Assembly (NCBI GenBank): GCA_001938485.1
Contig: MQRK01234068.1
Span: forward strand, 17,059-81,058
Length of the DNA stretch: 64,000 bases
Direction of reading: 5' to 3'
From: Girardia tigrina
Taxonomy: Eukaryota
The notes under the pieces were generated by a model that was not told the origin of the DNA, searched no databases, and saw only the letters and a program-made list of their open reading frames with translations. The translations under genes were made by a program, and so were the position numbers. How positions within the stretch are numbered: position 1 is the first letter of the stretch; every line of letters starts with the position of its first letter. This document shows positions 4,813-51,500 of this stretch, piece by piece.

Positions 4813-5930
4813 ATGGTTCGAAGAAATATGACATTTAAAACTGCTATTTTGAGAAATAATAACAACTTTATTAAACGACAAACTTCAACGATTACAAAAC
4901 CTCAGATAGTTCCTCTGATAAATGATAATACGGATTGGTATATGGACAGTGTCATTCAAGAAATGATGATCAAGTCTTTTAAAGAATAGGTTTCGATTAT
5001 CAATAGAACGTCGTCAAGTAAACTAGTAAATAATAATAATAATGATTGGTACATGGACGAATCGATTCAAACTCTGTTGATGAATTCCGTTCAAGAAAAC
5101 ACTTCGATTATTGAAGCAAGCAAGCCTATTCCGCTCACTAATAATAATAATTGTTATATGAATAGTGCGATTCAAGCAATGTTAATTCCGTTTCTAGATT
5201 TATCAGATTATCTGAAATCACAACTGACTAGTAAAAAGATAATCGTACCTGAAAAATCTTGTCATGCTTTATCATTGATGAAACATTTTACATTGTCCTT
5301 TGAAAAGCAACAAGAATTTTCTATTTACAAATTTCTTAAAGAAAATTGTGAATTGAAATATTTTGGAAGTGAATTAACTTGGAACAAACAAGAAGACGCA
5401 CAAGAATTTCTTAACAATTTTCTCAATAAACTTGAAGAAGAAGTAAAACCNNNNNNNNNNNNNNNNNNNNNNNNNNNNNNNNNNNNNNNNNNNNNNNNNN
5501 TGAGATGGACGAAATGATCGTAAATTGCATTAGAAATAAAGTCGAAGGATATAAATGTCCGAGTTGTAATTCGATAAATGGGAGAGGCAGAAATTGCGAA
5601 ATATTTTCAAATAGTCCTAAATATTTGATCGTGTGTATAAAAAGATTTGTTAGAAATCCGATCTCATTAGCAATTAATAAGCTTAATGAAGAAATGAAAA
5701 TAGACGACAAATTTGAGTTATTATATGGAAATGATGATAATGTGAATATTTCCGGTTATGAATTGATCGGAGTTGTAAATCATGTCGGAGGAACTATTTC
5801 ACTGTTTGTTAAATACAAAGATCAATGGTATAAGACCAATGATCAAAGAATAACTACAGTGAGTTTTGAAGATATGAAAAAAGAGGTTAAATCCTCAAAT
5901 TATATAAATGTGTATAAAAAGATTTATTAG
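4813..5930 (+). pseudogene. Intronless ubiquitin-specific protease (peptidase C19), copy 1, probably inactive
   Basis: Cys box [42 protein letters not shown]; in-frame TAG at 4987-4989; net 15-nt deletion removes GHY; N gap 5451-5500; antisense inside the VPS35L intron. Confidence 0.85.
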
Positions 5931-6424
5931 AATTGTTTATTTTTTTATTTTTGTTTGTCGCTTGATTCTTTAGTACTTTAAAGTGATATCGGAATGTTTT
6001 TTAGCTTTATTTTTCGATGGTCATTTTTTTCTTTATAAAATATTTTTAATTGTAAAAAAATTTTAAAAGAAGACCAAACTAACTTGGTTTTTACTAATTA
6101 AACTTTTTTCTATTTAATTTAATTATATTGTTTACTTTATAATGATGTATTATTATTATTTTAGTCAAATTCTTTTTATATTTGTATATTTGCTTAATTA
6201 ATATTTGGCATGTACGTTTTTGTATTTTTACTTTATTTTTTTATTATTTTTGTTTTATTAAAATTATAAAATTTTGTAATAAACTTATGCAATATAATAA
6301 AAAAATAATAAATAATATAATTAAATCTGTTATTTTTAATTACTGAATGGTTTGAATATGAAAATGCTTTTAAAAATTAAACTTTACAGAGAAGCAATTG
6401 TTCAGAATTCAATTTTTACAAAGT

Positions 6425-6525
6425 TTATTATGATCAAAATATGAATACAGTGAGTTGTGAAGAAATAAAAAGAGGTTAAATCATCAAATTATATAAATGT
6501 GTATAAAAAATTTATTAGAATTGTT
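6425..6525 (+). repeat. Degenerate duplicate of the last ~100 nt of the USP ORF
   Basis: ACAGTGAGTT..AGAGGTTAAATCATCAAATTATATAAATGTGTATAAAAAATTTATTAGAATTGTTTA repeats 5855-5940. Confidence 0.8.
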
Positions 6526-6849
6526 TAGTTTTTTTTATTTTTTTAATTGAAAGAAAAAAATTTAATTAAATATTAAAAATTATGAAAAAAGAAAAATATT
6601 AAGTTACAAATTCGGAGTGAAACTCAAAATTACTTTGAAATAAAAAAATCAAAAAGGATGGATGGACGTAGGATCACTGAAGATTATTCTTTTTGAAAAA
6701 TTGTCGTCCTCTTGTTGTCTTGTCCTAATCAAATAGGAGAAAATTTCACTGTGTTGCATAATTTGCTGGTTTCAGTTCTCTTATCAACTAATTTTTGTGG
6801 GAATTCATGTGAAGATATTTCTTCAGTGTTTGATGTTCCGAAGATTTTG

Positions 6850-7130
6850 ATATACCCAGCTGTTGTGAATGACGGCTAAGTGACTTAACGGGACTCACTT
6901 TTACACTAACTGGCACTACAGTAATGTTTTGTTGCGTTTGAACATTATGCTTTCGACCTGGCGATTTACTGGTTACGAATAACCCAGATTCTTAGAATTT
7001 CTATACCAACCTCGAAATTGTTGCTGTGTTCAAAGGCATTGTAACGTTCAAAGATCACGCTAGTTTTACAATCTCTGTGTAGCAATCCAATTTTGTAATG
7101 AATTTTCGCATTTCGAATGTTTACTATGGT
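6850..7130 (-). mobile_element. Tc1/mariner-superfamily N-terminal (HTH) remnant
   Basis: Degenerate TISRLV*KF*ESG..SPGRK..SP.KSLSR. Confidence 0.45.
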
Positions 7131-7139
7131 GATTCAAAT

Positions 7140-8402
7140 TTTTTTTCGTTTTCCCACTCATATTTACAAGATAACAAAGCATGTAAACAGAACACATTTA
7201 TTCTTCGAAATACAGACCTTTATTTTCGAAAGTCTTCAACCATCTTTCAGCCAATTCCTCGTTTCCACTAATATACCACTCTGTCGTTTTGGAAGCAAAG
7301 AAATTGCGGCACCCTTGCCCAACCTCTTCTACTGACTAGAACTACCACTCTTTGAGAAAATGCGCCAGCATTTTTAGAAAAAATTATCTAAGAGGTTGTA
7401 GTAACTGGGAGCAAGGTCATGGCTGTAGACAGCGTGTGGCAAAACTTCGATCCCCTACAGCTCTTGCACTTTACTACAAGTCAAACGTAGTGTGTACCGG
7501 AACATAGTCTTGTAAAATAACTTGACTGTGATTGACCAATGCCGGGTAACACTCACAGAGAATGGCGTAGACTCTGTCCTGCTGCTGAGCGTAGAGGTTG
7601 ACATGCACAGTACGCCCCTCTGGAACCAGCTCGAAGTGAATCCAACCCTCGAAATCCCCATTTACACGGAGCATAACTTTGCAATCGAAGCGTCCTTGAT
7701 TAACATCGGGTTGAGCGGGCATACCAGGGTAAAGCTACTGATTCTCCTTGTTGGGATTACGGAAAAAAAATCCACTTTTCATCCTCCGTCACGATCCTTC
7801 TGAAGAAGCTCATGTCATGGGAGTGAGCAAGCAATTCTTCGCAGATATCAAGTCGCTGTCAGTTCGTGAGGAATTTTTCGACACCGTCTATTGACAAGGT
7901 CAATCTGATGAAGATGAGGTTTAATAGTGAGTTGTGAAGGACCAAGCTCTGTTGATAATCTCCGCATGTTAATGCAGGGCTGCTCGTCCACAGCTTGACG
8001 TAGAGTGTCATTATCAACAACAGATGGTCGCCCAGAGCGAGGTTGGTCTTCGAAATTGACATCACCACTTGAGAAACGCTTGAACCACAACTGTGACATA
8101 CGAACACTGATCGTACCTTCGAATTCTTCTTCACATATTTCCCGGGCTGCAGCATCTGCGTTGAAGCCTTTTTCCAGTTATGTCGCAGAAGGACTCGAAT
8201 TCCGTATTTTTCGCTCTCCATAATCTGATAAGAATAAATAAACAAACGCTTCATAAATAAACCAGCATTATACAAGGAGATTCGTCATGCAATACGATAA
8301 TAAATAATATAAAAAACAATAATGCCAAAATAGAATATCCATAGAAAAGAACTTTCACAATCTAAGGCATAGAAAAACGAAAAAAACTTTTGAATCACCC
8401 TA
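7140..8402 (-). mobile_element. Decayed mariner element
   Basis: WFKRFSSGDVNFEDQPRSGRP, IPHELT, C-terminal LAERWLKTFENKGLYFEE*, TIR-like end near 8402. Confidence 0.9.
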
Positions 8403-8692
8403 GTATCTTGTTACTGAACCGCTTCATAAATACAACATATAAAAATAATAAATGGTTTTCTAATCGTAGTGATAATAGATAAATAAAATGATAGGAAAAT
8501 TGCTGAAAATCTTCAAGCAAAAAATCCCACAAAATCAGAAAGCTGCATACTTCATGAAAGAATCTTTACATCATTATTTTTATCATAACTTATACAACAA
8601 TAAACCTGTATAAAAATATTTTAAAATTTATTAAAATGCAATTTTTTATATTTTTTAAACTTTTTTCACTAAATAATCATACAAATAATTAC

Positions 8693-10190
8693 CTGAAAAT
8701 CACACTGTTTACTGAGAATCTTATTCAAAATTGACATCAACTGATTCGAGAACTCCTGGCATGCATTTTCCCTCATCACTTCTTTAACTAAATATGCCAA
8801 AAACCGATTGATATGAATAATATCAAAGTTCTTCGCGAGAAACTCGGCCCACGCATCACAACATTCAATAAAACACCGCAAATCATTAAATTTCGTTAAC
8901 GATTTCCATACGAGTTTAAATAGTGACATCGCTTGTTCTTGACCAAGTGTGAATGAAAGTGAAACACAAGCACCGAGCTGTTTCCACATGAGATAGCGTG
9001 GATAACCGCTGTCCGGAAGAGTCTGAATCATCTCTGCAAAAAATAATGGTTTCGTTTTTATTAATTCCACGGGAATTGAATTCAGGAGCGAATGAACGAG
9101 CAATGCATTTTGACTCTTTTCCACCTGCTTTATAACCCGATCAATATCATTTGATGTTGTGCTCAAACCGACACACAGACACTGCAGAATCCAGTCGACT
9201 GCCGGTACAAACAACCGCAAATATGAAATCATTTTGTCATAAGAATCAATCACTATTCCCTCGGAATCCAAACTCGCTCCACTAATAAACGATAGTCGAT
9301 TCAGAGACTCTAAAGTGTCTTCAAATGCCAATTTCAAATACTCCTTTCGACCGAAATCCATCGATATTCCTATTCGAGCAACATAAGAACGCGCGTAAGT
9401 TGCCAATAACGGATTCCCTATTCCGCGAGCCATTTTCATCAATCGGATCAATGATTCTGGTATTGATTTAGAATCGAAAAACCGGTAACACGATAGGAGA
9501 CCTGTTTCAATATATAATCGCGCCACGAGTTCTCTAATCGATGCAACTTTATACAACCAATTTCTTGCAGTTTCTTTAGCAACCTCCGGTATTTGGTTCT
9601 CGTGGAAATTGTCTGGTAAAGCAATTGGAACTCGTGAACCACGCTGAATAATGGCAGACTTTGCTTTTAATCTTTCGAAAACCAACGAACCGAAATTATC
9701 GACAAGATCGGTGATTAGAACGAATTTGCTGGGGAAAAATTGGGCAACGTTTGCCTCTGATAGAAGTTTTGTTGATTGAATTATGATTTGAAGTGATTTA
9801 ACACGTTGACCATCCCGCCATGACGTTTTTAGAGCTGACTGAAGTTCGTTTATCTTATCTGTGAACTGTTGAACGGAGAGATTTGATGTTTCGTGAACTT
9901 CTTCGTCAAATTGGTCTAGTTGTTCAAGTTTACTTTTGACTTTATCGAGAATCGATGAGGTTTTACTAATTAATCGACTATCTTCATCTGGTTTTTTCAT
10001 TAGAAAACTACTGATGATTGTCAATTTCTCGGATGTTGTATATGTAGTGAGAATAGACATTCGCTTAGATGACCATGGTTCCATATTAAGCACAGGAGAG
10101 TGGACTGAATCGGTTCTGTCTGTCGATGCCAAAGGATCTCTAAGAAGATCTAATGGAGAATTTTGCGATAGTGGATCCCAATTCGATGAT
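8693..10190 (-). CDS. VPS35L: VPS35L large exon (5' boundary uncertain)
   Basis: ~499 codons with DPLS motifs, EPWSSKRMSIL, QRVKSLQIIIQ, FPSKFVLITD, AKETARNWLYKVASIREL, RGIGNPL; donor CAG|GTAATT at 8692; candidate acceptor at 10191, first in-frame ATG at 10084. Confidence 0.93.
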
Positions 10191-10699
10191 CTATTTTTTA
10201 TTATTCAGGTCAAATTTGAACTCTTCTGAGAGTTATTTTTCCCTATTATCCTCCAAAAAAATAATAATTTTCAAATTTCTTTCTCATCATTCTAATAATG
10301 ATTTGTAAGATTTTTTTAATGATTTCAAAAAAACTTTTATTTTACATATAAAAACAGGCATTTCTCGTATTAATAAAAAATAACTACTGGTATTATTAAC
10401 GGAAATAATATTATTAATTTTTCTTATTTTGTATTTCAAGATTGGAATTTCTTTTAATTTTATTCTATAATATACAAGGGTCATTCAAAAGTTCGTGAAA
10501 AAAGTCAAATCATTGTGACTATATGTTTATGTTACAATTACCTGCTCCCTTGTTTGTGTGATCTTGTAGATGTCAGCCAATTAGAAAATAGAAAAGACGT
10601 GATTGGCTGACTACTCATTTTCCTATATTTCAGAATAAATGAAAGGTGCAGTGCATGCACAATACGGAATCGTTCATTTTCTGTGGAAAGGAAAGATAA

Positions 10700-11060
10700 A
10701 AGATTTTCTGGATAAGTTTAATTGTAGAAATCAAAAGTACAAAAAAGTTAGCGTGGATATATTTATAAAAGCTACGGAAAAAAATATAGTGACATGACAA
10801 CTTTGATTTGTGACCATTTGAAGTCCTTAAAAGTGAGAATTAATGATTTTTTTCCAGAAATATTAATCAATTCATATGAATGGATAAGAAATGCATTTAT
10901 TGAATCCCACAATAATATTTATTTAAGTCTCAAAATTGAAAACTTAATAGATATTCGTAATGCCCGGGCATTGAGATTAAAATATTCAGAAATCCAATAA
11001 ACTCTTTTTGGAAACTTATTAGAAAAGAATACTTAAATAAAGAAGAAAATGCACATAAAA
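10700..11060 (+). mobile_element. hAT (Buster/Charlie-like) transposase C-terminal remnant
   Basis: DHLKSLKVRINDFFPE..WIRNAF..LIDI..FWKLIRKEY. Confidence 0.55.
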
Positions 11061-11473
11061 TTTCCCACATCCTATTTGTGTTTTTTTAACAATTTAAATA
11101 TAACCGAATGTTAGACATTCGTTTTTGTAAATTATCTTCATTTTAGTTGTTCAAGTATCTATATCGTCTCGGTTTTATAAGAGATTTGTTTATAATATCT
11201 AATTTTAATAATTTTTAAAATATTTATTAAATTATTTTAATTTATTTCTAAAAATATTCTTTTTCTAAATATCAATTTTTCTAAACTTTCAAAATCTACT
11301 CAATGGAAAATCAATGAATTCAATAATGGAAAATTTATTTTCGTTTTTTGAAAAATATAGTTTAAATTATCAAACATAAACTAATAATAAAAAAAGAATT
11401 AAAAATCAAAAAATGGATTTTTTTAAAATTAAATTAAAATAACTTTTTGAAAAAATTTCAAATTATCATATAA

Positions 11474-12053
11474 CAGCGGCGTAGCCAGGATTGCAGAGGG
11501 GGGTGGAAAAAAATTCCTGAAAGATCTAGCAATCTTAAATATAAACTTGGTGGCAAAAATAACAAGAATGAAATAATATTTATTTATTTTTATTTCTTTA
11601 TAATTACATGTCCAGCCGACGCTTTCCTTTGCGGAACTCGTGAATAAAATCTTCAAACAATACTTCTATGTCACGATGAATGCTCAAAAACATTAATCAA
11701 TTGAGTCTTTCCTCTCCTGACGTATTTCTGTCATCGGTTTTGAGTTGTTTCATTTTACTGAATGATCGTTCGATATCAGCAGTCGTTACAGGAATCACAT
11801 TGTAAATTTTCAGTAATGTAAAAACATTAGGGAACAATTGTTGTGGGCAATTTTTAAGGTGGTCTGTTGCTGTTTTTGGCTTCTAGGCTAAATTTTTCAA
11901 TCTTTTCTGCCACATTTCAACTTCTGCTAAGAACATCTGAAGTGTTCCGTTTAAATCGTCTGCATAGAAATAAAAAAGATGATCGAGACTAAGTGGGGCA
12001 TTTTATCAGGGGGGGAGGAAATCCACCCAATCACCCCCCTGGCTACGCGCCTT
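11474..12053 (-). mobile_element. Internally deleted hAT element
   Basis: TIRs CAGCGGCGTAGCCAGG / CCTGGCTACGCGCCTT, near-perfect 8-bp TSD TCATATAA/TCATAAAA, hAT dimerisation motif FPNVFTLLKIYNVIPVTTADIERSFSKMK. Confidence 0.85.
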
Positions 12054-15478: not shown

Positions 15479-15524
<46 letters not shown>

Positions 15525-24000: not shown

Positions 24001-27000
24001 ATTTTAAATAATATTAAAAAAAATATTAATTATAAAACATGGAAAAAACATTTAGTAAATTTTTAATGCAAAAATATACAAAAATTTTGAAAGTTGTTTT
24101 TTCTAATTATTTTTTTAAAAAATTAAAATAAATCAATAAAAATTTTTAATTTTACATAATCGTACACAAAAATTTAATTTTAGAAAAATATTCAAATAAA
24201 ATTTTTATTAATAAATAAAAAATAGAAAATTTTTTTTCAAAATGATATTTTATTGTAATTAATTTCTTAAATTATTTTTTTTAATAATATTAAAAATAAA
24301 AATAAATAATGGCACAAAAAAATTAAATAAAAATAAAATTAATTATAAAAAATGTAAAAAACTTTTAAAAAATCACTTTAATCATCGGGAACTTCACACA
24401 TACAGAAATTAAATTTCTATTATAGTATTAATTAGTTAAATATATTAAGCATATCTGGAAAAAAGGAAAGACTTCCGATCTGCCCCCACACAAATTTATA
24501 ATTCATAATTAATTGCATGAATAAATTATTAATAAATTAACTAAATAAATAAATTATTTTTATATTGATGTCAAAAGTCTTAGAAAAATTTAAGCTATTG
24601 ATTTTCTTCTTAATTTTTGTGGGGGGCAGATAGGAAGTCTTTCCGACAAAAATCATAATTCTATTATAACGATAAATATGTAATTCATTCATCGATTTAT
24701 TTATTAAATGAATTAATACTTTTATTACCGAATTCACCAACTTCTACTTCTCTAATCGGCGGCGGAGCAAGATTTTCTGACTCCTCTCGTCGAGTAGGTC
24801 AATCGATTTTTCATCCAAATTCATCATATTTCCTTCTTTGGGTATCGTATTGTTGACATTGATTTTTTTTGTATTTATGTTGACCCTTTTCATCGTTGAT
24901 TCATCGACTTCTCGTCGGATCGGCGGTGGAGGCACATCGACCCTAACCCTAACCCTAACCTCAATACTATTTAAAGGATGGGAGGCCCACTAAATTTGCA
25001 AATGATCGTCTTTTCATAGAAACTTTAATTGCAAAATATTAATGAGTAGGTGTTTTAGAATAAATACTTATAATTATAGAGATATCGTTATATTGTTCAC
25101 AAATAAGCCCTGGGACATATTTGAGAACAAATTAAAATAAACTTCAATGTTTTTTTTGAAAACACACTGAAGTATATTTTATATTTTCTTGAACTACGAA
25201 ATGATGAAAATCGATAATATAAATAGATGATAAAAAAATATCTATGAAAAAATAATAACAGTTACTATTAAAATCTGGCGCATTGGTCGCTTTCTGCCCG
25301 CCAGCCAAGTACAAATAGCTCCATTAACATCAAAAGTCACAACAATCGTCTTTGAAAACCGTCCCTTAGCTGGACAACATTTAATCCAGTGGATTAATGC
25401 TGGCCAATTCCAGTTTACCGTTTTAAAATTGGATGTATCAACCAAACTGATCTCAGCTGATCCGCTTGAAACAGCTAAGAAATGCTTTAAAAAAATGCTA
25501 TCAAAGAAAATGTTCCGAAATTCGCTTACGTCAATAAAATGTGAAGCGATTATGGGTTCTGAAATCATACTTAGAGATTCGATTTGGTTAAAATTAGTTA
25601 GCTGATAAATCTAAAATGAAAATAACAAAAATATCTTATTTTATAAGTTAAGGATAACTGATTATTGAAGCATTTTTTTAAAAAATCTACGTTAGACATG
25701 TTTTGTTAGACACAATCTTTGATCATATTTAGCAACTTTATTCATGTTGTAATTTTTTTGGTTTATTATTATTTGTTTTTTTTTTGAAATTAATGAAGTT
25801 CTATCTTTGCAGTGATCAAGAACCTTACTCGATCTACTCGACTGTGAGTGTTTACGAATCCGTGTTTTGAGATGACGATTTGTTTCTCCAATGTGGACCT
25901 CCCACCTATTTCAAATGGTATTGAGCCTTTAAGTTCTTTAGAAGGTCCAACCAAACTAAAGAGTCACTAACAGTCCCCGATAGGCCACCTACGGGGTCAC
26001 ATAGTTTCTGTCTACGAGATCTTTTCGATTCCCCTGTAAGAAACGACCAACCATAGGTTGTATAGTAAGGGTAAAATGTAAATTCACCAAAATCACCTTA
26101 ACAACCAATGAAATTACCTTAACCCTTTCCAGCCCAAATTATTATTTTTGGAGCATTGAATATCCGTTACAATGTTGATTTAAATTGCTAAGAAACAAGT
26201 GAGAATCGCGCTTTTTTGCATTCTAATATATATGTAGTGTCATCTATTAGACTTTTTAGAAACTATTACTGTGTAAAATTTAAATTGGGTAAAAGAGATA
26301 ACTGTAATTTAATTTTTCAAATATGTTGCCATAAGTCAACAATGGGCTGGAAAGGGTTAAAAATCATCAAAATTACCTTATCAACCATCGAAAACACCCT
26401 AGAAATATATAATTTATATTCTATATGTAATAAAAGTTGTTGTTTACTAGGATTTGAATGAATACATGTATAACATGATTATTTTTAACAAACATTTATT
26501 TACATTACAAATATAACATATGTACAATGTATACAAGTTGATAATTCACAACAAATAATGTCCATGTGGTAGTGTTCGTATTCCAACTGTCATAATATGT
26601 CGCTTGTCATCAAACCAGTCAAGAATCTTCCTCCGCATCATTACTGAGGAGACTTGATGTTCTCTTGTTCTAATTCTTCTCATTTCTGATATTATGCTGC
26701 TCTTTTCCATTAGAATCCGATGTAATTGACTAATGTTGCCCGTTGAACGCCTTTGGCCCTCTTTTTGATCTTGCCGCTCACGTAAATGGCATACATCTTA
26801 GACCGTAGTGCCACGAATCTTGATATAATCTGTCCATTGACCTCATCTTTAAACTTCCCAAGTATCTTTTTATTTGATGCTGAGTAATTTGGATGGTCTT
26901 TTGGATAGTCTGATGTATCAATATGCTGTGCAATTTCATTCAAATCCGCAAATAGATCTTTTGTATAGATCTGATAGATATCAGTATCCATGTACATTAG

Positions 27001-30000
27001 TTGTAAATTCTGATTGAATTTTGGGACCATGATGTCGTAATGAAAGTCATAGATCAAGGTCTTGGACAGATCCAGGATTGACATCCCCACATATATTGAC
27101 TTATTAAACTCCAGGGATGTCTTCAGCATGTGTATACTCAGCAGGTTTTCGGTGTATATGATGCTGCTGTGGAAGTTTGATTTTGCAATGAGCTTCTTTG
27201 CTTGCTTCCAATCACATACAAGCTCAATGTTGATTCTATTGTAGATATTCTCCATCGTTTTACCAAAAACGCGGTTGTTATAGAGCTTGAATTGACCTTC
27301 CTCAAAGTCGTTTTTGGCATTGGTCCTCAGATTGGTGTTAAAATCGATATATAACTGAAGCCATTTTGACTGACTAAACTAAAGAGCCCGATGGATTTTT
27401 GTGACTTTTAGACCATTCCTTATAGTTTGTTGGAGATTGATGTAGTGAACTACATATCTCTGTCGATTTTCCAAGTGACAGAGCAGCTTCTTATGTTTTC
27501 CATTAGGTGGACATTTGCTCTCAGGCAGAAAAAAGCAGCTGCTCATGTTTTGTATTGACGGATTTTGGATAATCAAAATCCACTTCCAATATGTAGCCCA
27601 CATCTCCATTAGGATCCAGTTTTTCTATTGTGATGCCTTGTGGTTGATCCACCCATTTAAAATTATCAAAAGGCAATGGAGCACTAATTGCCCATCCATA
27701 TAAATTTTTGGCATCCATGTATGTTATATATGAGGATGTCTTGGATGGATCATAATTTTCCATATACTTGTTGTTCCCCTCACTGAACCGATGACAAATT
27801 CCACCTCGAATTCCTTTTTCAAGCATAATGATCATATCATAATCCTTGAGGATTTGGAGCCTTATGTCTGTATATTTTAACATTGCTGTCCAACTCATAC
27901 CTGGTGATATAAAGAAATGAGCTGGATCCAACTTGTGGCTTTTAAGTGTCACATCTCGAAAGCTCTCAAAGACATCCGTAAGAAGCAGCACATCTGTTAT
28001 AAGATATACATCACTATATTCCCCAAGTATTTGGCATTTGAAAGCTTGCCAGACATTTTGAGCATGTTGATAATAAGCATCACTATTGTCGGTTTCATTA
28101 AGCTTATTATAAAATACCTCTTTTGCTGGCAATGTTGTTTCATCCAGTGATCTCCATGATGTTATATAATCATAGGGGAATACTCCTTTCCTTTTAACCA
28201 AGTCAAATGTATTTGGAAAGTATTTTTCAGTTTCCTTCAGTTCATCTGCTGAAAGATTCTTGACTAGGCTGTCAAGCGATGATGACATGAACCGGAAACT
28301 ATCGATGAATCGGAATTTAATTCTTCATGCATGTTTGGTAAATGTGATGTATTTCTCCTCACTGTTTGGAATAATATCTATGTTCCCCTTGATCTTTCCA
28401 AGTTCTATTACGATAAAGTAAGAGTCATATCCACTAAGATTGTGGTATACGACGGGAACATTTGTAGATGTTTTACATTGCAAATTACAATTATTGCATG
28501 CTGCTCCTCGATATCTTCCTGTAAAATTACAATGGTCTTTAACTTTGTGATGTAACTTAACACATGTAACATTGTGTTGCTTTGCTCCATTCACACTTTT
28601 CTTGACATGTCATTATCATGATCCCTTTATTTCGGCAAAAACTCTTTGTAGCATCTTTCTACTGAAGATTGGTGAAAATTCTCTCTCGTTGATCAGCTTC
28701 GGCACAGTTTTTCTTGTCCCACTGAGTCTTCCTGATTGAATTAAGCAGTTTATGTATGTTTCCCTGGATACAGTAGGGTTTCCGTGAATGATCCAGTTCG
28801 GGTAATCGACTTTTTTTCACGAATAACAGATTACTATAAAAACCATCCAAAGTTTGGATGTTAGGACACTATCTTAACATTATTGATATTTTTATAAATG
28901 TTATTCTTAAATCTTCTGAAACCATCTGAATAAGGCATTTTTATAATTTTACCGCGTTCACCTTCATCCTCTTTTTTGGTTTTGTTAGCGTGGAAAAAGA
29001 AAAAAATATTAAATTGATGCTAGACAGAATCCACGCAAAACTTTTTTTCAAAATTGCGACTTGAATGAGGATAATTTTGTTGGTTTTATTGAGGTTTTTC
29101 CGTTACACCGAAACTTGAGACGATAAATTGAATTGCCAATAATTTCAAATCTCGTTGATTATTTATGTTACTTTGTTTCAAAATAGTTCTTAAATTTTGG
29201 TCGATCGAATAAATTTATCTCTTATTTCCAACGACAAATGAATAACGATGAAACTGAATTTATAAATCCGAAGAATAAATAGAAATTTTAAGTGGAAGTT
29301 TGATACAAAAATTCTAATAAACTCAAACGACAAACTCAAATTAAATTTGTAAATTTAGTCATCTTCACGAGTCTGTCACGAATCGACTCAAACATTACAA
29401 TTAGCAAATTGACTATATTTGAATTTGAATGATGAGAAAGAGAGTGACTCGATTAGAATAAGTTCCTTATCGATAAACGAGAGAGATTTTCGAGCTGTAT
29501 ATTATCACCGATTTTCGAACGAGGACAATCTCTAACTAGTCATCGATTTCATCACGAATGATTTAAGGGAGCCGTACTCGATCTACACGTACTAGAATCT
29601 TATCTGTAGCTGACTGCGACTCTGAATTATGGCATTCACGAATAAAGACGACAACTGCGAGCGGTGTATAGCAGTGTACCGCCGGAGACTAATCGGGTCT
29701 CCCTTGGTTGAGTTACGATCGATACGCAAGGTCGTTCTCGATACCAAGATTACGACGGATCCGGATCGCGGAGGTGCACCACTATAGGTGCAATTTATCG
29801 ATCCCCATTCCAGTCATCCTATTCAGTCATTTTAGTATGATAAAAACTATATCTAGTTTTCTTTTAAAATGACTAAAGAAGAATATTTGAAAATTATGAA
29901 TAATAACTTCAAGTCTGGGATTTACTCCAACTACTCAAATGCAGACAATATCATGATCCAGCAGGATTAAAATCTGTTCTACACTTCGAACTTTATCTAG

Positions 30001-33000
30001 AACTGGCTTCAGAAAATACATAAAACTTGTGGTCCAAACCAATGTGACCAGCCAGTTCTATGGATTTGAATTCTCTGGATTATTCAATATGGACATATGT
30101 TGAAGCCAGTACATGAGCTCATCCTTATGCCAACGACATTATTAAGAACATTTAGACAAGTCTCATTTGAATTTTTATTGCAATTACATTTAGAGTCATT
30201 ACAACTCTCAGAATGTCTTTCATCGTTTGCTATCGTTCTAATTAGTTTTCTTATTTCTGTTTTTAATCATGATTATTCGAATATTTTTTCTAAGTTATTT
30301 TTTAAAATATTTAACCTCTAAAAATATTAAATAAAAAATAATAATTTTTACCATTTTTTTGTGTACAAGCTTTTATAATTTGTCATATGTTTGCGGTTCT
30401 GTATCTATTTCACCCACTTCCCACATTTTTGACTGAATTATCAAAACCTACTAGGCCAAAACCCGCTTTCTATTTGCATTTAGATGTAGCAAATTTCAAA
30501 GCCTACTACTGAGGAAAACATGAGAACGACACTTTAATTACTTTTGCGACCAAACTAAAGGCGGTAGATGAGCAGTGACAGTGAAAAAGTGTATTGTCAC
30601 CTAGAATACATCAGTTCTGAAAGTTTCTTGTCGCTAGGTGAACGGGAAGTGGATGAATTTTCGATCGCAAGATTTGATGCATCCAGGCAGACAAACAAAC
30701 AAATGAAACTTAATTAAAGATTGTAATAATAATTTTTACCATTTCTCAATAAATCCCAAAATAATAAAAATGTCATCAAATTATTAAAAATACATTTAAT
30801 TTAAATTTTACTAAAAAATATTACACTTAATTTTAATTGTGAAATTAAAAATATGAACTTATCAAATGATTATTTTAATTATGTTCGAATAGTCAATCAC
30901 TTTAAACTTAATAAAAAATACCAATTTCCATCTGGGTGGGAGAATCACCATTCTAAATTCAACATACTTAAATCAACATACAGCATCCATACATTTACAC
31001 ATTCAAACAATTTAAAATATTCCTCACAGACATCTTGAACAAGTCCATCATTAATGAGTATATCAACATGTCAAGAGTACATTCGGGCAACCTTGTTAAA
31101 ATTTTAACATCGTCTTGAGACTGTGATTGCTGCTGAAGAAGAAAAATTTGAATATTTGTATTTTATTAATATATTCATGCAAAATTACTTATATCATTAT
31201 TTTTTGTTTTTTTACTCCTTATTGTTCTGGCTCCGGTTCCAGATTTTGCTGGTCTCTTAGAGAGTTTTGTAATCAAACCCTGTATATTTTTTTTATTTTT
31301 TATATTTAATTTATTATTGAAAAAATTTAAAAATAAGAAATCGCTTGAACTTTAATATAAAGCTTAATGTATCAGAATATTTAGAAGATGTAAGACAGCA
31401 ATGTCAAACCTTTTACAATAAATTGGCGAAAAAATATTTGATAGGAAGTTCCTCGAGGAGAAATACTGAGAAAAGTTTTAACTAACTACATAATATGGTA
31501 TATGCAATGCACAGTTTGCATATAAACCTTTAATAAACATTCATTTAAGACTTCCTTCGTTTCCATAATTTCAGCTTGTCATTTTTCAGACAATTAAAAA
31601 TATTGTTAAGTATTGTATTGAATTGAATAGTGTGTTTAAATAGACTTAGATGATTTCTGAATTTTTTAATTTTATATTCTATTAATTAATCAACTTTAAA
31701 TAAAAAGGTTACGAAAAACGTTACCTTAATGGATTTACTTGAACAAACCGCCATTTGATTATTGCTTGAAACATGAAAATCTTTCACAGCTTCAATAAAA
31801 ACTCTTATAGATTTTAAAACCTGGACTTTATTGTTGTTAATTGTTAAAACTAGTATCCAGCCTTCAATTGTAGCAGCAAAGACATAATGTCTGTCAAAAG
31901 AAATTGGGGTTTTACAGTAGGTTTAAAAAAATAATATTTATATAAAATAGAATAGAATTATGATTAAAATAGATCAATCAATAAATAATAATTATGACGG
32001 TTAAACAAAATATAAATCCTTTTCTTGCATGACTTAAGAATTAAGCAGTGAAGACAAACCGATAACAAAATACTCACCTCAGTCGATATTTCCAATGTTT
32101 CTAAACCCTTTTACCTTGCAATCCACAAAAATGGTGTTTGTTGCGCTTTTATCGTTTTCGTAATTCGAATTAGAATTTATCAAATATTTTATTAGCACAA
32201 ATTAATAATTTTGAATGCAAACAAATTTTCACTTCCTTTTAATAATCAATCTTTATTTTAATTCTCAAATTCTGATTAAATTTTTAAGTCTCAAATTTTA
32301 AAATAATATTTAATTCGATTTTAATTTAATCTTATTTTTTATTAAATAACATTCATTTTTTAAATTAAAAAAATATTTTTTTACAAAATAATTAAAACAA
32401 TTTTAATTTTAAATCAATTAAAATTTATTCTTAATTAATGTTCCTATTTAAAATTTTAGAAAATATTTTATTCTACCATATTAAAAATTAGTTATAGCTC
32501 ATATTTGTTATTTTCAAAAATTATATACTTTAAAATATTTTTTATTTCAATTATATTAGGATACTTGGTTTAAAATTTAATTTAAAATATTTTTAAAATT
32601 ATGTTTCAAAATTTTAATCATTTTAAAATTATTAAAATTTGTGGCGTATCCTCATAACAGCGAATTACAAAACAGCGAATTACAAAACAGCGAATTACAA
32701 AACAGCGAGTTACATAACAGCGAATCCCAAAACAACGAATTACATAACAGCGAATCCCAAAACAACGAATTACATAACAGCGAATCATCAAAACAGCGAA
32801 TTACAAAACAGCGAATCTTAAAACAGCGAATCCCATAACAGCGAATCTCAAAACAGCGAATCATCAAAACAGCGAATCATCAAAACAGCGAATTACATAA
32901 AGCGATTTACTATCCAAATAGAAAAAAAAGTCAATTAGATATAAAATTTTATTTTAAGAAAATACCAACTTTAAATACTTTGTCAAAATGCAATTGGTGT

Positions 33001-36000
33001 GCTTAAACTGAAAGAAATTCCACGAATAAACTCCTGCACACCGATTTCACCATCATAAAAACGCTGTTGCAATTTTGGAATACGTTCACTTATTGAATTA
33101 TACTTTTTATTTTTTTTTGTTAATAACTTGCCCAGCATTAATTTGTGCCATCAATATTTCTGTAAATCCTTGTTCCTTTCTTATACATGATATTAAATCA
33201 TAAATATTGGGGTGATGCTTAGCAACTAAATTATTTAAGCGGTTGTGCCACCCCTCAACATCATTGTTAGTCCGCCGTCTGATGCCATACATATTCCACA
33301 TTTCTTTTTTAATATTTTGAAACCATTGCTGGTGGAAGTACTGGAATAGAGGTCTAATATTTACCGATGCCTCGTCCCTGAGATTGTCGAAAGTTTGTTG
33401 AACAATTTGTTCAGGAACAAACGCCAAAGCCATAAGCATACGTATTTTCGTTCTAAGTTCCTGATTACTACCATAATCGACACTAAAACCTAATTTCTGA
33501 ACTTGTCTAAATATCGCTTGGCAGAAATGAAATAACAACCACGTAGACGACTTTGCGGAAACTCTTGTTGTAACGCAACTATTAAACCTTTCTCGAAATC
33601 GAATGTGATTAAATTTGGTGAGAGTATCAAATTATGCTCCAGACATAAATCCAGAATTTTACGAAAAACTGATGTGTATGTTTCAGCATTTTTATCTATC
33701 AGAATACAACAAATTAATGGAAGTACTTTATTTTGGAGAAGAGCATGGATTGTAAATATTTGTTTATAAAAGGGAAGTGCTACCCGAAATGTACCGTCCA
33801 TGAACCAATGGTTATTGCTGGATAACATTTGTAAATTACTTATTGTTCCAAGTAATATAATTGATTTGTCCACACTGATAAACAATAGGAATAATTGGCC
33901 TGAAATAGTTTGTGTCAATTGATCAGGTATGTTGACGTCATTTAAACTTTGAGGCAAAACCGGTAATTTCTCATGACGTGCTCGATACAANNNNNNNNNN
34001 NNNNNNNNNNNNNNNNNNNNNNNNNNNNNNNNNNNNNNNNNNNCAGAAATTTCAGCTGCCGCATCAGAATGTATAATCGGAATACTGCGCGTTTCTGTTT
34101 TTGCCTGTTGCTTCATCTTACAAATAGTAGACTTTACGATACCAATTTCTGGTGCTGGTGGATAAGAATGCCCTTGTTTTTCAATCGGATGACAGTTGTC
34201 AATATCTGACCAAAGTCATCCTTTGCAACCGATTGTACGACATCGCCAAATTTTTCTAATTGCGGTGACTGTATCTACACGGTAGGAATATCCTCCATAA
34301 TTGCATGCTTCAGAACCTTTAAGAGTTGTTAATATTTCCATTGAGTTTTTCACAAACAAAATTTAAAAATAATGTTATGGAAAAATCGAAAATTAAAACA
34401 AGCTTTAAATTATATTATTAATAATATTATATCTTAAAAATATCTTATTAATATAAATATTCTCCAATTTAAATAACAAAANNNNNNNNNNNNNNNNNNN
34501 NNNNNNNNNNNNNNNNNNNNNNNNNNNNNNNTATTATATCTTAAAAATATCTTATTAATATAAATATTCTCCAATTTAAATAACAAAAATCTCATTTTAA
34601 AATAAAAAATATCTTAATATAAAAAATCTTATACATATATCTTAAAATATTTTATTAATATAAATATTCTCCAATTTAAATAACAAAAATTTCATTTTAA
34701 AATAAAAAATATCTTAATATAAAAAATCTTATACATATATCTTAAAATATCTTATTAATATAAATATTCTCCAATTTAAATAACAAAAATCTCATTTTAA
34801 AATAAAAAATATTTTAATATAAAAAATCTTATAAATATATCTTAAAATATCTTATTAATATAAATATTCTCCAATTTAAATAACAAAAATCTCATTTTAA
34901 AATGAAAAATTTCATTCGCTATTTTGCGGAATTCGCTGTTTTGATGATTCGCTGTTCTGATGAATCACTGTTTTGATGATTCGCTGTTTTGATGATTCGC
35001 TGTTTTGATGAATCGCTGTTTTGGAATTCGCTGTTTTGTAATTCGGTGTTTTGATGATTCACTGTTTTGACATTCGCTGTTTTGGGATTCGCTGTTATGT
35101 AATTCGCTGTTTTGTAACTCGCTGTTTTCGGGTATAACCAAATTTGTCAGCAAAAGGAAAATTAACTAAATCCTCATTAGGGACATAAAAAAATCATGTA
35201 ACATAATTTGAAGACGCACAAATTTATCAAGAAATAAACATAAGGTTGACGATTAGAATTTTAAGTCACTTAAATTTATTGTACAATTCAGTATATCTTA
35301 ACCCTACAATGCGCATTTTTTTTAATATATGCAACACATGCGGCCAGTATTACAAACTGAACTGTCATTTTTGTTGACAAAATATATTGCATCTATGACT
35401 TTATGGGCAGTTATCATTCCATAGACAATGTTTTTGGTTCACAGTATGTAAACACTCAAAGAATATCACGTGATTAAAAGATATTGAGGTAAAATATGGT
35501 TGATTCAAATATGAATCACGGCGCATTGTAGGGTTAAGTACAGGTTATATATGATCTAGATCGCTTTACTAAAAAATTCCTTTCAATTTCTGAGTCTCTA
35601 CAAAAAGTTCTGTTCTTAATGAAAATTGAGAACTTTTATTTTACAAATAGTTTTTTAAGTCTAATTTACCGTCCATTTATGTGTCAATTGTTCAAGTCTT
35701 TTGGAATTATGAGATTCGAATCATGTTTGACATTTAAACATTTGACTACCATTGGGACAACACGTCCCAAGCAATTTCAAAAAATTCCAGAGAGATAAGT
35801 TAGTATGCGAAATCGGTTATTTGCATCCCAGTTGTATATAGTGAATGTACTCTTGCGCGCCATCTACACACACACAACCTGAAAACTTGCCAGTACTTGT
35901 CAGTTGCGAGTTTGCTTTTGCGCTAGGACCATCTCATTTTTATTTAATATGAGTAAAAAAATGGTTCGGTAGTCAAAGTGTTCAGGAAGTACTGCGAAAA

Positions 36001-39000: not shown

Positions 39001-42000
39001 GATCTCACCTTTGGTCCATTGAGATTCATTATCTTCGTTTTTGCGACATTGATCTTTAGCCCCATTGAATTTAACACTTTGTTCAAAATATCCAAATTAG
39101 CCAATAGGCTATTGTAGTCCTGATCCAACAGGCATAAATCGTCCGCCTATGCTAGATGGTTAAGTTGAATCGTTCCCGTGCCGTGTTTCACATCAACTCC
39201 CCCATTCATTCCTTTTTCTGAAGCAATTTTCAGAGCCCGATTGAATACTATGTTGAATAAAATGGGACCGACTACACAGCCCTATCTGGCACCCTTCTTC
39301 ATTATGAACTTGTCCTCTCCAATAGAACCTTCGAAGTTGTCATGGAATAGTCTAATGATTTGTAGAATTCTTTCGCCGATTCCGATCTTCTCTAGTGCAG
39401 CCCATAAGATCTTCCTTGACACACTATCAAAGGCCTTCTCTAAATCTATGAATATATCTTTATCGCCATACCTTGCATCTTCTTGTAGTTTTCTCAGGAT
39501 GCTGATCGCATGACTTGTACCTCTGTTACTGCGGAATCCAAATTGCCAATCACTTATACAATTTTCTAGTATTGGAAGAATTCTATTTACGATAACTCTT
39601 GCTAGGATCTTTCCACCCACCTCTAGTAGATAGATTCCTCGATAATTGTTCAGCTCTTGTCTGGATCCTTTACCTTTGTACAGAATTAGGACTCTTACTT
39701 CGCTCCATGTTACAGGAAATACTTCGGAGCCTGTCCATATATTACTAAAACAATCACAAACTTGCCTACATAATTCTGTACCACGTCATTTATACAATTC
39801 TGGAATAATTACATTAGTACCCGCTGCTGTACCATTGTTGAGTTGATCAATGGCTTTTCCAATTTCCTCTATATTTGGCGGAACATTCAAGTGATCCAGT
39901 GTATTCATGCCACTTCCGATTAGTTTTATGCCTTCTGAACTGTCCCAGTTATTGTCATTGAATAGCACGGAGAAATGTTCCGACAGTGCCTCAACCGTTA
40001 CTTCTTTCTTGTATTATATAATGTGTACTTCTTTGTATCTGTATTGCAGAGCAACCGAAGTTCATGGAACATCTCATTTAAGCGTCCATTTCGTTCATTT
40101 GTCAATATCTCTGATACTTCGATACTGATAGTATCCACCCTGTTGCGTTTCCATGTCCTTATGCTTCGAAGTAACTTCTTTTAAAGTTAGTAATATTTTT
40201 TCGCACTCAGTCCTTATGGAGCTATTTTTGAATAAAAGGATAAATCAATGATCTTTTTAAAACAATAGGAAAATTACCTCTATTTTTGTGGTTAAAATTA
40301 TTTTTAATCAAAGATCTTTTAAGAAATAAACATATTTTATAAAGAAGCTTCGCATTTTATGAGAAAAAACGATTATAAAACAACATTTTTATAAAGTTCT
40401 ATTAAATCAACTTACTCATTAATCCAGAACCATAGTTTCAATATTCCTCCTCTATTCAAATTTAATGCATCAACTTCACAAACGTTTGTTGAGTCTGTAG
40501 TTCTACGCCATAATTCAATAATACCAGAATCAAATCCTAGCATTATCCAATAATTTTCAATGAATACAATATCCCAAACGCCTTTCTTAGATTTTTCTTC
40601 AATTAACTGTCCTGTTTCGATGTTCCACAATTTGATTTTAAAATCAACATTAGTCGGATCATTTATTTCTATACCACTAGCCATAAGAATTGGTCCACAA
40701 GAAATACAATGAGCTCCTGGTGGAACTGAGAATGAGCTATCTATTTTCAGTGGCAATATTCTTAAAACCGGTTCACGATTATCCCCTGAAATGCTTTGTA
40801 GTGCTTGAAAGAGTGTCATGATTAGTGCTGTCGACATAAGAACAATTCCCATCCCAACAATACTAGCCAAAACCATTTTAAATGTTAGACCCAGATCAGC
40901 CCATCCTCGTAAACTACTCGGTATTTGCATGAATAACTCATTTGTGCCAGATATAATCGGATTTCGCAACCAGTGATTATTTTGATCTTTAGAAAAATTA
41001 TCTTTATTAACCATACTTTCATAAGATATTTTTATATTGTTCAACAATTTCCAAGACGGTAAAACAAATAACTTGCGATTAGTTATGTTAATTGAATAAA
41101 TTTGAGCAAGTTGTGGCCAGTGGTGCATCGCTAAAAGCTTCCAGTCATCAGAAAGATCTATTTCAACATCTGACTGTAGTGGTAGAGATATTATATTGTT
41201 AAGGAACATGGAATGGAAAAGATTTGTGGAATATAATATGATAAATAGAATCCAAATTGCTGCAACTATCTATTAATTAAATACTACATAAAAGAAATAT
41301 AAACACGTTTTAAAATATTTATTGTAACAAAATAATTTAATTATTTAACAAGTACAATTATTTTTTTTAAATTTTAAAAGAAAAGTGAATAACTAAATAA
41401 ATGAAATATGCGAAATGAATATACATTTTTAAAAAATATTTTATTAATTTAAAATTATAAAAAAAAGATAATATACCATCACTAATCTCTGAAAAATTCT
41501 ATTTTTTGCCCAAAAATAAAGAAACATCAATCTTCTTGGAATATAAACGGGAACCCTTCCATCAGATTGAATAAATGCAGCAGTATTAATGTCTAAAAAT
41601 AATTACTGAAATATAAATTGAAAATGAGTATTAAAAATCACTTAAAAATATATGCCTTATTAAAAATTTATACGATTTTTATTTAAAAGAAAATGCTTCA
41701 AATATGATTTAAAAAGTTATAATAAGTATAATCATACCAAAAAATATTTTGGTGTACAAGCTTTTATAATTTGTCATATGTTTGCGGTTCTGTATCTATT
41801 TCACCAACTTCCCACATTTTTGACTGAATTATCAAAGCCTACTGGGCGAAAACCCACTTTCTATTTGCATTTAGATGTAGCAAATTTCAAAGCCTACTAC
41901 TGAGGAAAACATGAGAACGACACTTTAATTACTTTTGCGGCCAAATTAAAGGCGGTAGATGAGCAATGACAGTGAAAAAGTGTATTGTCACCTAGAATAC

Positions 42001-42529
42001 AACTGTCATGAAAGTTTCATGTCGCTAGGTGAACGGGAAGTGAGTGAATTTTCGATCGTAAGATTTGATGCATCCAGACAGACAAACAAATGAAACATAA
42101 TAAAAGCTTGTAATAAAAAGCTCATATAATCTTGGTTAATTTACTGTATAGTTTCAAAAATATTTTAACCATGCTTAAATTAGCTCATTTCATATATAGA
42201 TGTACAGGGGATAAAAAGGGGACGACACGTTTCGAAATAATAATCCCATCATCAGGTCACAAAATGCATTCAACTCACACATTATACGAGAAAAAAATAA
42301 TAATTAAAAACCATTTTACCAATAAATCATTGGATAAAAATGAATTTATTTCATTTCTTTAAAAATTAAGCAAAAAAACATCAAACGCGTTCAATTATAT
42401 TCTCGCAAACTAACCATTGGAAGCTATCAATTGCAATTTGAGAAAACAGTATGTTTACTCTATCGTTCCGTACTTTACAAGGTAAATTATTTAATATGGT
42501 AAAGATAACAATTGAAAGCCAACCAAAAG

Positions 42530-42572
<43 letters not shown>

Positions 42573-48500: not shown

Positions 48501-51500
48501 AATTATAAATAGAAATATGTTATTATAATACTAATTATTCTCACACAACTATTTATTTTTTTTAATTCAGATTAAATATTTTTAATGTTTTATTTTTTTA
48601 TTTATTTATTTTTTATATTTATTTTTTTAATTATTAATTATATATATGTATCAAAACACTAATGATAAAAATTAACAGAAATTGTCATTCAAAGAGTTTA
48701 TATTACTCTTCGAGATGAAAGAGAGATGGAGAAAGAGGAGTCAGATTGCTATAAATAATGATAACGACAACATATAATAATAAAAACAATTTGAATCCCA
48801 AACAATAATTCTAATAAATCTTTTTATACATATTTATATAATTATGTACTTTTTTTCATTTTTTCAAAGTTCAAATCAATTTAAATCTTGCTTTAAGATT
48901 AACTACCAGTACCATCATTATAATAATTAATAATATTTTTTTTATTTTAGGACCAAATCAATCAATTTACCATGAATGTATTTAGATGAGAGAAGATGAT
49001 TTACGAAATCTAAGAATTCTAACATGTTAATTTTTTTTAACTTTCAAATCTATAGTCATTTTTAAAATATTTTTATATTATTTTATAATTTAAACTAATA
49101 CAAAAATAATGAAAAAAATAAATTTCAAATACAAAAATCAACATGCCAAATATTAAATAAATAAATATAAATTATCACAATAAAATCAAATTATGATTTA
49201 AATCAAACTAAAAAATTATAACTGGTCTCAAAACTTAAAAAAGATTTTAATATAATTTTAAAGCAAACAATATAATTAAATTAAATAGATTAAAATTAAA
49301 TTACTTAAAAAAGAGTTAGTTAGGTTTTATATACAATTAAAAATAGTTTATATATTAAAAAATAACATCAAAAGACTAAGCTAAAAAACTTTCCGATATC
49401 ACTTTAAAGTACTAAAGAATCAAGCGATAAACAAAAATAAAAAATAAACAATTCTAATAAATCTTTTTATACACATTTATATAATTTGATGATTTAACCT
49501 CTTTCTTCATTTCTTCAAAACTCACTGTAGTTATTCTTTGATCATTGGTCTTATACCATTGATCTTTGTATTTAACAAAGCTGTAATAATGTCCACGTGA
49601 AATAGTTCCTCCGACATGATTTACAACTCCGATCAATTCATAACCGGAAATATTCACACTATCATCATTTCCATATAATAACTCAAATTTGTCGTCTATT
49701 TTCATTTCTTCATTAAGCTTATTAATNGCTAATGAGATCGGATTTCTAACAAATCTTTTTATACACACGATCAAATATTTAGGACTATTTGAAAATATTT
49801 CGCAATTTCTGCCTCTCCCATTTATCGAATTACAACTCGGACATTTATATCCTTCGACTTTATTTCTAATGCAATTTACGATCATTTCGTCCATCTCACT
49901 ATTTCCATCAATGTTTATGAATAGCATATTTTCATTTACGATATTCGGTTGAGATGCTTTTGTATGTTGACAATTGTCACAAAACAATCTTACATCACGA
50001 TTAATTTGAAATGGTAAAGCTTCGTTTCCAATAAACGGTTTTACTTCTTCTTCAAGTTTATTGAGAAAATTGTTAAGAAATTCNNNNNNNNNNNNNTGTT
50101 TGTTCCAAGTTAATTCACTTCCAAAATATTTCAATTCACAATTTTCTTTAAGAAAATTGTAAATAGAAAATTCTTGTTGCTTTTCAAAGGACAATGTAAA
50201 ATGTTTCATCAATGATAAAGCATGACAAGATTTTTCAGGTATGATTATCTTTTTTTTGTGAATCTAAAAAATTGAAAAATAATTACACTTTTTTCACCAA
50301 TTACAATCAAAAACAAAATTTAAATATTAAATAGTACTTTAATTGTTTTATATTAGAAAGAAATCCCTTAGGATGGGGAACATAATAAAGTAAAAAAAAT
50401 TTCTTGACAAAATAAATAAGGGGTTTGATATTCCAAGTTTCTGAGAAACTTTGAGGATAATTTAAAAATTAAAAGACTCTTAAAAACATCTTTAAAAACA
50501 AGTAGTCAATGCCGCCGGATCTCGTCCGATCTCTGAAGTTAAGCAACTAACGGCCGCGTTAGTACTTTTTTGGGTGACCGATAAGGAAATCGCAGGACTT
50601 TTGACTACAAGTAAGGTCAGGCAAGCTGTCTGCTACAGGTACCATATAAACCTGTGGAGCGGAGAATTGCCAATTTTGACCGAACATTTATTTTTGCCAC
50701 TATTAGTGAATATAAATAAAATATATAACTAAATTAACAAATTAAATAAATTGCTTTAATTAAATAAAATGAATAAATTAAATAAATAATTAAAAATAAA
50801 AGAAAATTAATCAAATAACAAGAAAAATGAAAATGAATCGGTTCGTCAAGAAATAAATAAATCGTTAGAATAAAACTCGCAAAATTTCATGAAATTAAAC
50901 TCCACGAAACGACAGCTCTTTTATTTGAACTGGAACAACAGTCATTTGATTAATTATCAAATTTTTAATTCGTTCTGAATAATGTATGGTGAGCCTCATT
51001 TTTATTTTCTCTTTCAATGTAATAAATGGAATATGTGTGATTGTGTAAGTTTCTTTATTGCATGTATGTGTGTTGGTGTGAATGTCTGAGTGCGTGTGTA
51101 TGAATGTATTGTGAATAATATGTTAATTTGATTGGAGAATTGTGAGTGTGTGTATTGAGTGGCTAGCTTTTGTATTTCGTCACCAATTATCATCAATTAC
51201 AAAAAAAAGTAAAAGTGTTCAATTTAAAAAAAAGGTTTGTCAGTTTGAAAAGGGATAATAAAAGGTCTTTGTGTCAATCTCAATTGTTTTTCAATCACAA
51301 TTCTTTTTTAAAATACAAAAGAAATAATTTAATTGAACGAACAAAAAGAATAAATTGATGAAATGGCTGATAGAGAGGTGAAAGTGCATAGAGCTAAATT
51401 AGTTGATGGAGTGGTTAATGCGATGAGAGATGTCGTTAAAATGACCGGCGAATTGAACATGGATGAGCGTGACTTATTATCGGTAGCATATAAAAACGTA

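Follow-up and report, generated by a model that had tools for sequence, protein, structure and literature searches.

The window analysed here, a stretch of 64,000 nucleotides (nt) from the planarian Girardia tigrina (contig MQRK01234068.1 of assembly GCA_001938485.1, positions 17,059 to 81,058 of the forward strand), contains two near-identical segments of an intronless gene for a ubiquitin-specific protease (USP), called copy A and copy B below. They lie in opposite orientation, one in an intron of VPS35L and the other in an intron of SCAP. Both are pseudogenes in this assembly, a breakage that the earlier note on this DNA, made from its letters, had overlooked. The explanation that we prefer, at a probability of roughly 0.6, is that A and B are broken copies of an intronless USP gene related to ubp8 of Schmidtea mediterranea, and likely dispersed members of an amplified, gene-converted flatworm oocyte family.

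Two broken USP copies in the introns of VPS35L and SCAP

4813..5930, forward strand: copy A, a full-length but broken intronless USP open reading frame (ORF), from the ORF listing, alignment and a Pfam UCH match
4921..5216, forward strand: three 80-nt repeats with spacings of 111 and 105, from a repeat scan
8692-4211, reverse strand: VPS35L host intron of 4,482 nt, GT-AG, phase 0, from exon matches
49454..50254, reverse strand: copy B, a 5′-truncated USP ORF, codons 137-402, from alignment and a Pfam UCH match
55644-46317, reverse strand: SCAP host intron of 9,328 nt, GT-AG, phase 1, inside the sterol-sensing region, from exon matches

The placement given by the earlier note holds: the two segments, which it put about 44 kb apart, are separated by 43.5 kb as measured, and both match Pfam UCH; A is antisense to VPS35L and B in sense to SCAP, with host exons in order and GT-AG borders around each. 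The VPS35L exons that flank the first intron (10204-8693 and 4210-~4013) match residues 77-564 and 567-630 of animal VPS35L, in order around it. As an observation on the host gene itself, the stretch at 8693-10204 (reverse strand) is a single exon of ~500 codons, with at most ~42% identity to animal homologues among those listed. On the SCAP side, three exons downstream of the intron match the sterol-sensing domain, SCAP being the best Protein Data Bank (PDB) match for the single exon searched. The upstream exon gave no match in a Pfam scan, and we take it to belong to SCAP from its frame and from a SCAP motif. Since the host exons are ordered on both sides and A-type and B-type flanks are found in independent read runs, the possibility raised earlier that one copy is a misassembled duplicate is rejected. 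A spliced fusion of SCAP with copy B was also considered and set aside, because joining the acceptor-like AG that precedes B to the phase-1 SCAP donor would break the reading frame.

Comparisons with reads were made with runs X1-X4 (4 of 18 runs with matches), taken as contigs over 4340-6200, and cover the 40 listed difference rows (out of 93) and the 32 listed contig pieces (out of 288); runs X7-X18, with small shares, were left out. The intact 402-amino-acid (aa) form of the protein, described in the next section, aligns to copy A from 4828 onward. The frame of A is interrupted by a premature in-frame stop at 4987-4989, and a net in-frame loss of 15 nt at ~5802-5804 has removed the His box; a sense codon at the position of the stop, and the missing 15 nt, are both present in all four runs. 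The gap of 50 Ns at 5451-5500 stands for 138 nt, which is the length of the corresponding stretch in copy B and the length with which contigs of X3 and X4 span the gap. The first two of the 80-nt repeats are degenerate copies of the Cys-box segment and the third is the real Cys box. Relative to the majority form, A carries private changes in 8 codons (1 stop, 5 missense, 2 silent) at 9 listed places between 4847 and 5331, and because these are retained we regard it as a decaying copy and not as an assembly consensus. A separate observation is that the X4 contig differs from A by 34 letters in the left half (4340-5450) and by 2 in the right (5501-6099), so that the sequences left and right of the N gap may derive from different haplotypes.

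Homology of copy B to the intact form begins at 50254, that is at codon 137 of 402 and within an A-run, and the first 136 codons are missing. Its Cys box is therefore absent, while the His box is present and the frame is open apart from N gaps at 50084-50096 and 49727; the earlier note had rightly recorded gaps in both copies. The 200 nt upstream of B align to those of A at chance level (56 of 200 shuffles as good), the 5′ junction of B being known from this assembly alone. Thus neither copy of the window has the Cys box and the His box in one reading frame, and of the ‘cassette’ described previously the intronless USP segments remain but not their intactness: A has a stop and has lost the His box, and B is without the Cys box.

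The protein family and its Schmidtea relative

An intact form of 402 aa (P0002) is encoded on one contig of the Joint Genome Institute (JGI) of 2,062 nt, and matches the window pieces at 94-95% when gaps and Ns are counted; an intact form also occurs in all four runs, X1-X4. It gives 114 bits with Pfam PF00443 (UCH; cut-off 23.9), and its predicted structure has the USP fold, the top Foldseek matches being USPs with E values of ~1e-19. Residues 1-95 of the model are of low confidence; this N-terminal stretch holds the two degenerate Cys-box segment copies. A search of 1.84 billion representatives returned 9 proteins at E ≤ 1e-30, the next match being at 5e-23. Seven of the 9 consist of the USP domain only (348-426 aa) and the other two are long proteins with several matching stretches, at 26%. 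Cys110, His358 and Asp374, together with four zinc-finger cysteines, are invariant in 7/7 divergent family members. From established USP motifs and the alignments, the first three are the probable catalytic residues, and conservation of these positions suggests that intact members would be active deubiquitinases (DUBs). In scans of JGI metagenomes, none of 81 pattern matches was confirmed and no match to a degenerate motif was obtained.

The sole named protein among the seven is ubiquitin specific protease 8 of Schmidtea mediterranea (ubp8; UZP64864.1 / OL957302; PMC8994625), with 38% identity over 304 aa. It resembles the window family in being a USP-only protein of ~400 aa that falls in the same clade and keeps the catalytic residues; it differs in an unrelated N-terminus, and the window copies are broken and nested in introns. 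According to the available part of PMC8994625, ubp8 is a marker of larger, later oocytes, and the ubp8 probe sequence of 1,720 nt encodes the start of the protein P0128 (supplement 3). In the sheet of ovary-enriched genes of the same source (supplement 2), of which 12 of 21 places were covered and whose rows are without sequence and carry USP annotation only, 6 of the 8 listed USP-annotated rows are 103- to 56,807-fold enriched in the ovary, with values close to zero in testes; enrichment in the remaining 2 is 2.7- and 3.8-fold.

In a tree of 49 rows, all 8 family members fall on one side of a branch with an SH-aLRT (Shimodaira-Hasegawa-like approximate likelihood ratio test) value of 99, and the 7 viral USPs and 3 USP17-like rows fall outside this group; this was a quick tree, from which near-duplicates were left out, with the 22 best-scoring other rows and a thin sampling of other USP subfamilies. 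The best PDB profile match is USP36 (99 vs 88 bits), which ranks only fifth by fold. An approximately unbiased (AU) test that joined the family to a USP17/36/42-like group (15 rows, chosen after the tree had been seen) gave p = 0.09 and did not reject the join; in the free tree the two are separate. Kinship with USP17/36/42 is a possibility, and the family may work in the manner of mammalian USP17/DUB3, to which we return below.

Contig depth and the divergence of coding and flanking DNA

4690..5970, forward strand: core of high depth in X1 and X2, boundaries approximate, from contig depth

This core corresponds to the ORF with ~100-130 nt upstream and 40-60 nt downstream. In X1 the intron-side contig (4340-4719) has a depth of 62.2 and the four ORF contigs 1833-2728, with ratios of 29.5-43.9, and in X2 the corresponding values are 41.7 and, for five ORF contigs, 453-697, with ratios of 10.9-16.7; such depths are not copy numbers, the run types are guessed (X1 and X2 ‘DNA’, X4 ‘RNA’) and contigs drop rare variants. 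Just upstream of the start, X1 has at least three contigs, at depths of 402, 611 and ~457 (the last by subtraction), and just past the stop at least three others, at 244, 99 and 32. The ORF contigs of X3 are ~9 deep, with no cover at 4466-4654, and X4 has one contig of 2,024 nt at a depth of 12.5, with A-type flanks on both sides. An 823-nt contig of X1 is of the B type: it agrees with B at all 10 diagnostic letters listed and at 14 gap positions, and it shows the echo joint. Its depth of 31.6, half that of the intron contig, hints that copy B is possibly on one chromosome only in that run. As a whole, these data hint at tens of family copies, in a number that varies between samples. The high-copy family put forward by the earlier note is thus supported as a hint (ratios of 30-44 and 11-17, and at least three flank variants per side in X1) and not as a count, and to the same extent the excess depth and the X1 variants contradict the alternative that only these two copies exist.

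5931..6280, forward strand: 3′ flank of A common to copy B, ending at an AATAAA cluster, from alignment; a possible 3′ untranslated region (UTR)
6430..6542, forward strand: echo A, a partial copy of the last ~110 nt of the ORF, ~590 nt downstream, 89.7% to the ORF end
48804..48868, reverse strand: echo B, which repeats part of the ORF end 643 nt farther downstream, 82%
49075..49453, reverse strand: 3′ flank of B, homologous to that of A, from alignment and the X1 contig

Downstream of the two ORFs the common DNA is alignable over ~350 nt (score 249; none of 200 shuffles exceeded 92). Farther on, partial copies of the ORF end, here called echoes, score 131 (A) and 73 (B), where 300 shuffles apiece reached no more than 41 and 35. 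The homologous downstream DNA said previously to end in such an echo is therefore present as the ~350-nt flank and as the echoes, but not in the 150-170 nt between them, where similarity of A and B is at chance level (141 of 200 shuffles as good). The same is true of the DNA beyond the echo (153 of 200 shuffles as good), and because nothing is common past it, the echo finds no support as a long target-site duplication (TSD) or as the terminus of an element. In a core of 73 nt, echoes A and B differ from the ORF by 3 and 5 mismatches and from each other by 8. Being nearer to the ORF than to each other, they fit a single old partial duplication that A and B both inherited and that conversion has perhaps refreshed. 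The echo, which had been taken for a possible trace of the copying mechanism, looks like such an inherited duplication and not like a scar left by each event.

The ORF and its flank have diverged to very different extents. In the 206 codons that can be compared, the two copies differ by 2 silent and 4 replacement changes, the former among 110.8 silent sites (1.8%), whereas in the first 350 nt past the stop 47 of 333 aligned positions differ (14%), with 63 gap columns in addition (silent sites against flank, Fisher P = 9e-5). The differences climb stepwise, from 1 in 300 nt beside the gap of A to 3 in the last 126 coding nt and then to 10-20% in the flank, near-identity fading within ~60 nt past the stop codon. 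A homogenising process is needed here, because purifying selection by itself would not keep silent sites alike, and the pattern suggests gene conversion limited to the ORF. A comparable pattern is described, in the available part of bioRxiv 10.1101/282418, for KRTAP1, a set of single-exon paralogues whose coding regions are homogenised while their flanks have diverged, and it is put down there to short-tract gene conversion. The likeness lies in the homogenisation of the coding part only; on the other hand, KRTAP1 genes are tandem and functional, whereas the USP copies are dispersed and dead and their pattern fades over ~60 nt.

Origin of the copies and what it would mean

50492-50605, forward strand: degenerate 5S rRNA copy, 45.8 bits (cut-off 38)

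The DNA around the copies was searched for signs of mobility. A scan for terminal inverted repeats (TIRs) around A and B found A/T-rich arms only, while the same scan recovered the 25-nt pair of a neighbouring element. The search for TSDs, which was run without a control, gave at best 7 nt at B and an A/T-only word of 11 nt at A, none convincing, and no poly(A) tail was found at the copies. No Helitron 3′ hairpin with a CTRR end was matched in either intron, no positive control having been run. The flanks have no other match in the window, and the X-box motif has 3 hits there, which is no excess (23 of 100 shuffles had as many). No mobilising gene linked to the copies was found, the transposase remnants of both introns being separate from A and B, nor were ends of an element found at either copy.

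The neighbouring element just mentioned is 1.28 kb long and lies at 7122-8405, downstream of copy A in the VPS35L intron, with TIRs of 25 nt (7122-7146 and 8381-8405; 88%) and a broken transposase. The latter had no Pfam match in the one frame scanned, and it looks mariner-like by its motifs. The 5S copy, a 5S pseudogene or a 5S-derived repeat, is located 238 nt beyond the 5′ junction of copy B; there is none at copy A. The SCAP intron also holds, at 51354-51794 (forward strand), an intronless and internally deleted 14-3-3 fragment (Pfam, 107 bits), a stray piece of a host gene. Elsewhere in the window we observed a nuclear RNase P RNA gene (58830-59106, forward strand; 77 bits), antisense within the SCAP gene region; a broken protein-primed DNA polymerase B (pPolB; 26710-28324, reverse strand), a Polinton-type remnant; a repeat of up to 0.9 kb in three copies at 90-93% (30140-31028, 41731-42119 and 56059-56942); and inverted minisatellite arrays with a unit of 15-16 nt (32653-32910 and 34914-35128) around a Mutator-like (MULE) transposase remnant at 33490-34215. 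These arrays with their remnant (32653-35128) resemble the ends of Mutator or Foldback elements.

How, then, did the copies come to their present sites? Ubiquitin-like proteases are known as passengers of transposons, Ulp1 in Mutator-like elements and OTU in Helitrons, and the resemblance consists in a protease of the ubiquitin system present in many dispersed copies; the protease family is another one, however, and neither element ends nor a mobilising gene were found at the USP copies. The earlier note had nonetheless read the USP as a mobile or selfish sequence, possibly transposon cargo. In a more specific form, A and B would be decayed insertions of a non-autonomous DNA transposon of the Helitron or Pack type. 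High depth with multi-copy flank variants would agree with this, as would one X3 contig (a single one) that runs upstream of 4672 into an X-box-like palindrome and the presence of the decayed 14-3-3 fragment and the 5S copy near B, and the ends could have decayed with age. Nevertheless, the scan that detected the TIRs of the neighbour saw only A/T-rich inverted arms near the copies, neither intron has a hairpin-plus-CTRR end, no TSD is convincing, the flanks are unmatched elsewhere in the window, the X-box is not in excess, and contigs with the A-type 5′ flank have a low depth in both X1 and X2. Given as well a conserved family with 7/7 catalytic residues and a relative expressed in oocytes, the cargo proposal is not supported, and we consider it unlikely. 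Retrocopying of an abundant oocyte mRNA, with B truncated at its 5′ end, or overwriting of the ORFs by cDNA, could explain why B begins at an A-run and why the alignable flank stops at the AATAAA cluster ~350 nt past the stop of A, not far from the 3′ part of ~400 nt implied by the 1,720-nt ubp8 sequence; remnants of LINE (long interspersed nuclear element) reverse transcriptase exist in the window. But B has no poly(A) or TSD, the echo is present in both copies beyond the AATAAA cluster, and no intron-bearing parent is known. Moreover, near-identity ends within ~60 nt of the stop, while cDNA should bring the UTR along (the test applied in the available part of bioRxiv 10.1101/282418), and we find this explanation more doubtful still.

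It may also be asked whether the gene is of low copy number, gaps having been filled with collapsed reads, which would make the ORFs alike, and transcripts or the summing of look-alikes accounting for the depth. The N gaps of both copies do lie inside the ORF, identity is highest beside the gap of A, the run types are guessed and X4 has one contig. That A keeps its private changes, that ORF contigs close to identity are connected to diverged flanks in different runs, and that the flank variants of X1 exceed a diploid locus, unless the sample was pooled, make an artefact of this kind improbable. The selfish interpretation can also be given a form without a transposon, by analogy with the wtf genes of fission yeast, which are dispersed multicopy germline genes and pseudogenes spread via non-allelic recombination at repeats such as 5S rDNA (from the available part of PMC9562144). 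Here an oocyte USP family, variable in copy number, would spread by non-allelic conversion at such repeats and bias its own inheritance through the egg, by female drive or as a maternal-effect poison-antidote system. It would be the equivalent in animals of the wtf drivers, with a USP as its material, and we hold this to be very improbable. The dispersed germline family and the position of B near a 5S copy recall wtf, but the proteins are unrelated, wtf genes are proven meiotic drivers and the USP has its one 5S neighbour at B and none at A; the pointers are limited to copy variation, germline kin and this neighbour. Least probable of all is a gene from a giant virus or a Polinton that spread as an endogenous viral element. 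The three best matches in the Atlas feature search are USP clusters of Nucleocytoviricota (0.94-0.95), Polinton-type pPolB remnants are present in the window, and an AU test joining the family to four viral USPs did not reject the union (p = 0.33). Yet relatives in IMG/VR (13 loci) reach only 23-33% identity, 0/13 being confirmed when IMG/VR was scanned with exact patterns from the intact protein, no viral gene adjoins either copy, and the closest kin is an animal gene, at 38%. Comparison with host and viral USPs, as the earlier note had proposed, thus sets the family apart from the 7 viral rows of the tree, although the AU test leaves room for a join.

Under the explanation that we prefer, dispersed and gene-converted members of a ubp8-related family, spread would probably have taken place through duplication at the DNA level. 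An old duplication would have brought the ORF, its 3′ flank and the echo to the SCAP intron; later conversion from many intact ORFs would have replaced the coding sequence and may have done so with the echoes, leaving the flanks to drift. Locus A is apparently a long-standing site that has decayed here but is intact in another sample, and intact members would supply a high dose of the enzyme in late oocytes. Several points speak against this explanation. Expression of the window family in oocytes is extrapolated from ubp8, a relative at 38%, and the kinship of the other ovary USP rows is a matter of annotation, these rows being without sequence. The mutation rate of the A/T-rich flanks may exceed that of silent sites, and this would inflate the contrast between ORF and flank. 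Contig depth does not measure copy number, ‘DNA’ is a guess for X1 and X2, and some variants could come from a pooled sample; in X4 there is one contig, without excess depth, and contigs with the A-type 3′ flank are not among the rows listed for X1 and X2. Finally, A and B are the only copies read in a genomic context, and the dispersal step is without a positive signature.

Our literature search, for which subscription literature was mostly out of scope, brought up no account of a planarian USP family that has been amplified, or of a transposon-borne USP, and nothing about how many copies of ubp8 exist, about its introns or about its function. The nearest known parallel is mammalian USP17/DUB3 (mouse Usp17l), likewise a short USP that has multiplied to tens of copies, in a number that varies. 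From the available parts of the sources, the RS447 array of USP17/DUB3 varies between 20 and 103 copies (PMC5687341), the family expanded separately in mammalian lineages (PMC2874809), and an enzyme of this type acts in the early embryo, in the 2-cell programme (PMC12316976). The difference is that RS447 is a tandem array of a 4.7-kb unit, whereas the two window copies are solitary, lie in introns and have diverged flanks. If our explanation is true, A and B would show clearly how conversion limited to the ORF can act on copies that are dispersed and even dead, by which old duplicates are made to look young. Flatworms would then have separately evolved a stripped-down DUB similar to USP17/Usp17l, multiplied to tens of copies and linked with the egg or the early embryo, and DUB dosage would be a recurring feature of oocyte and early-embryo biology.

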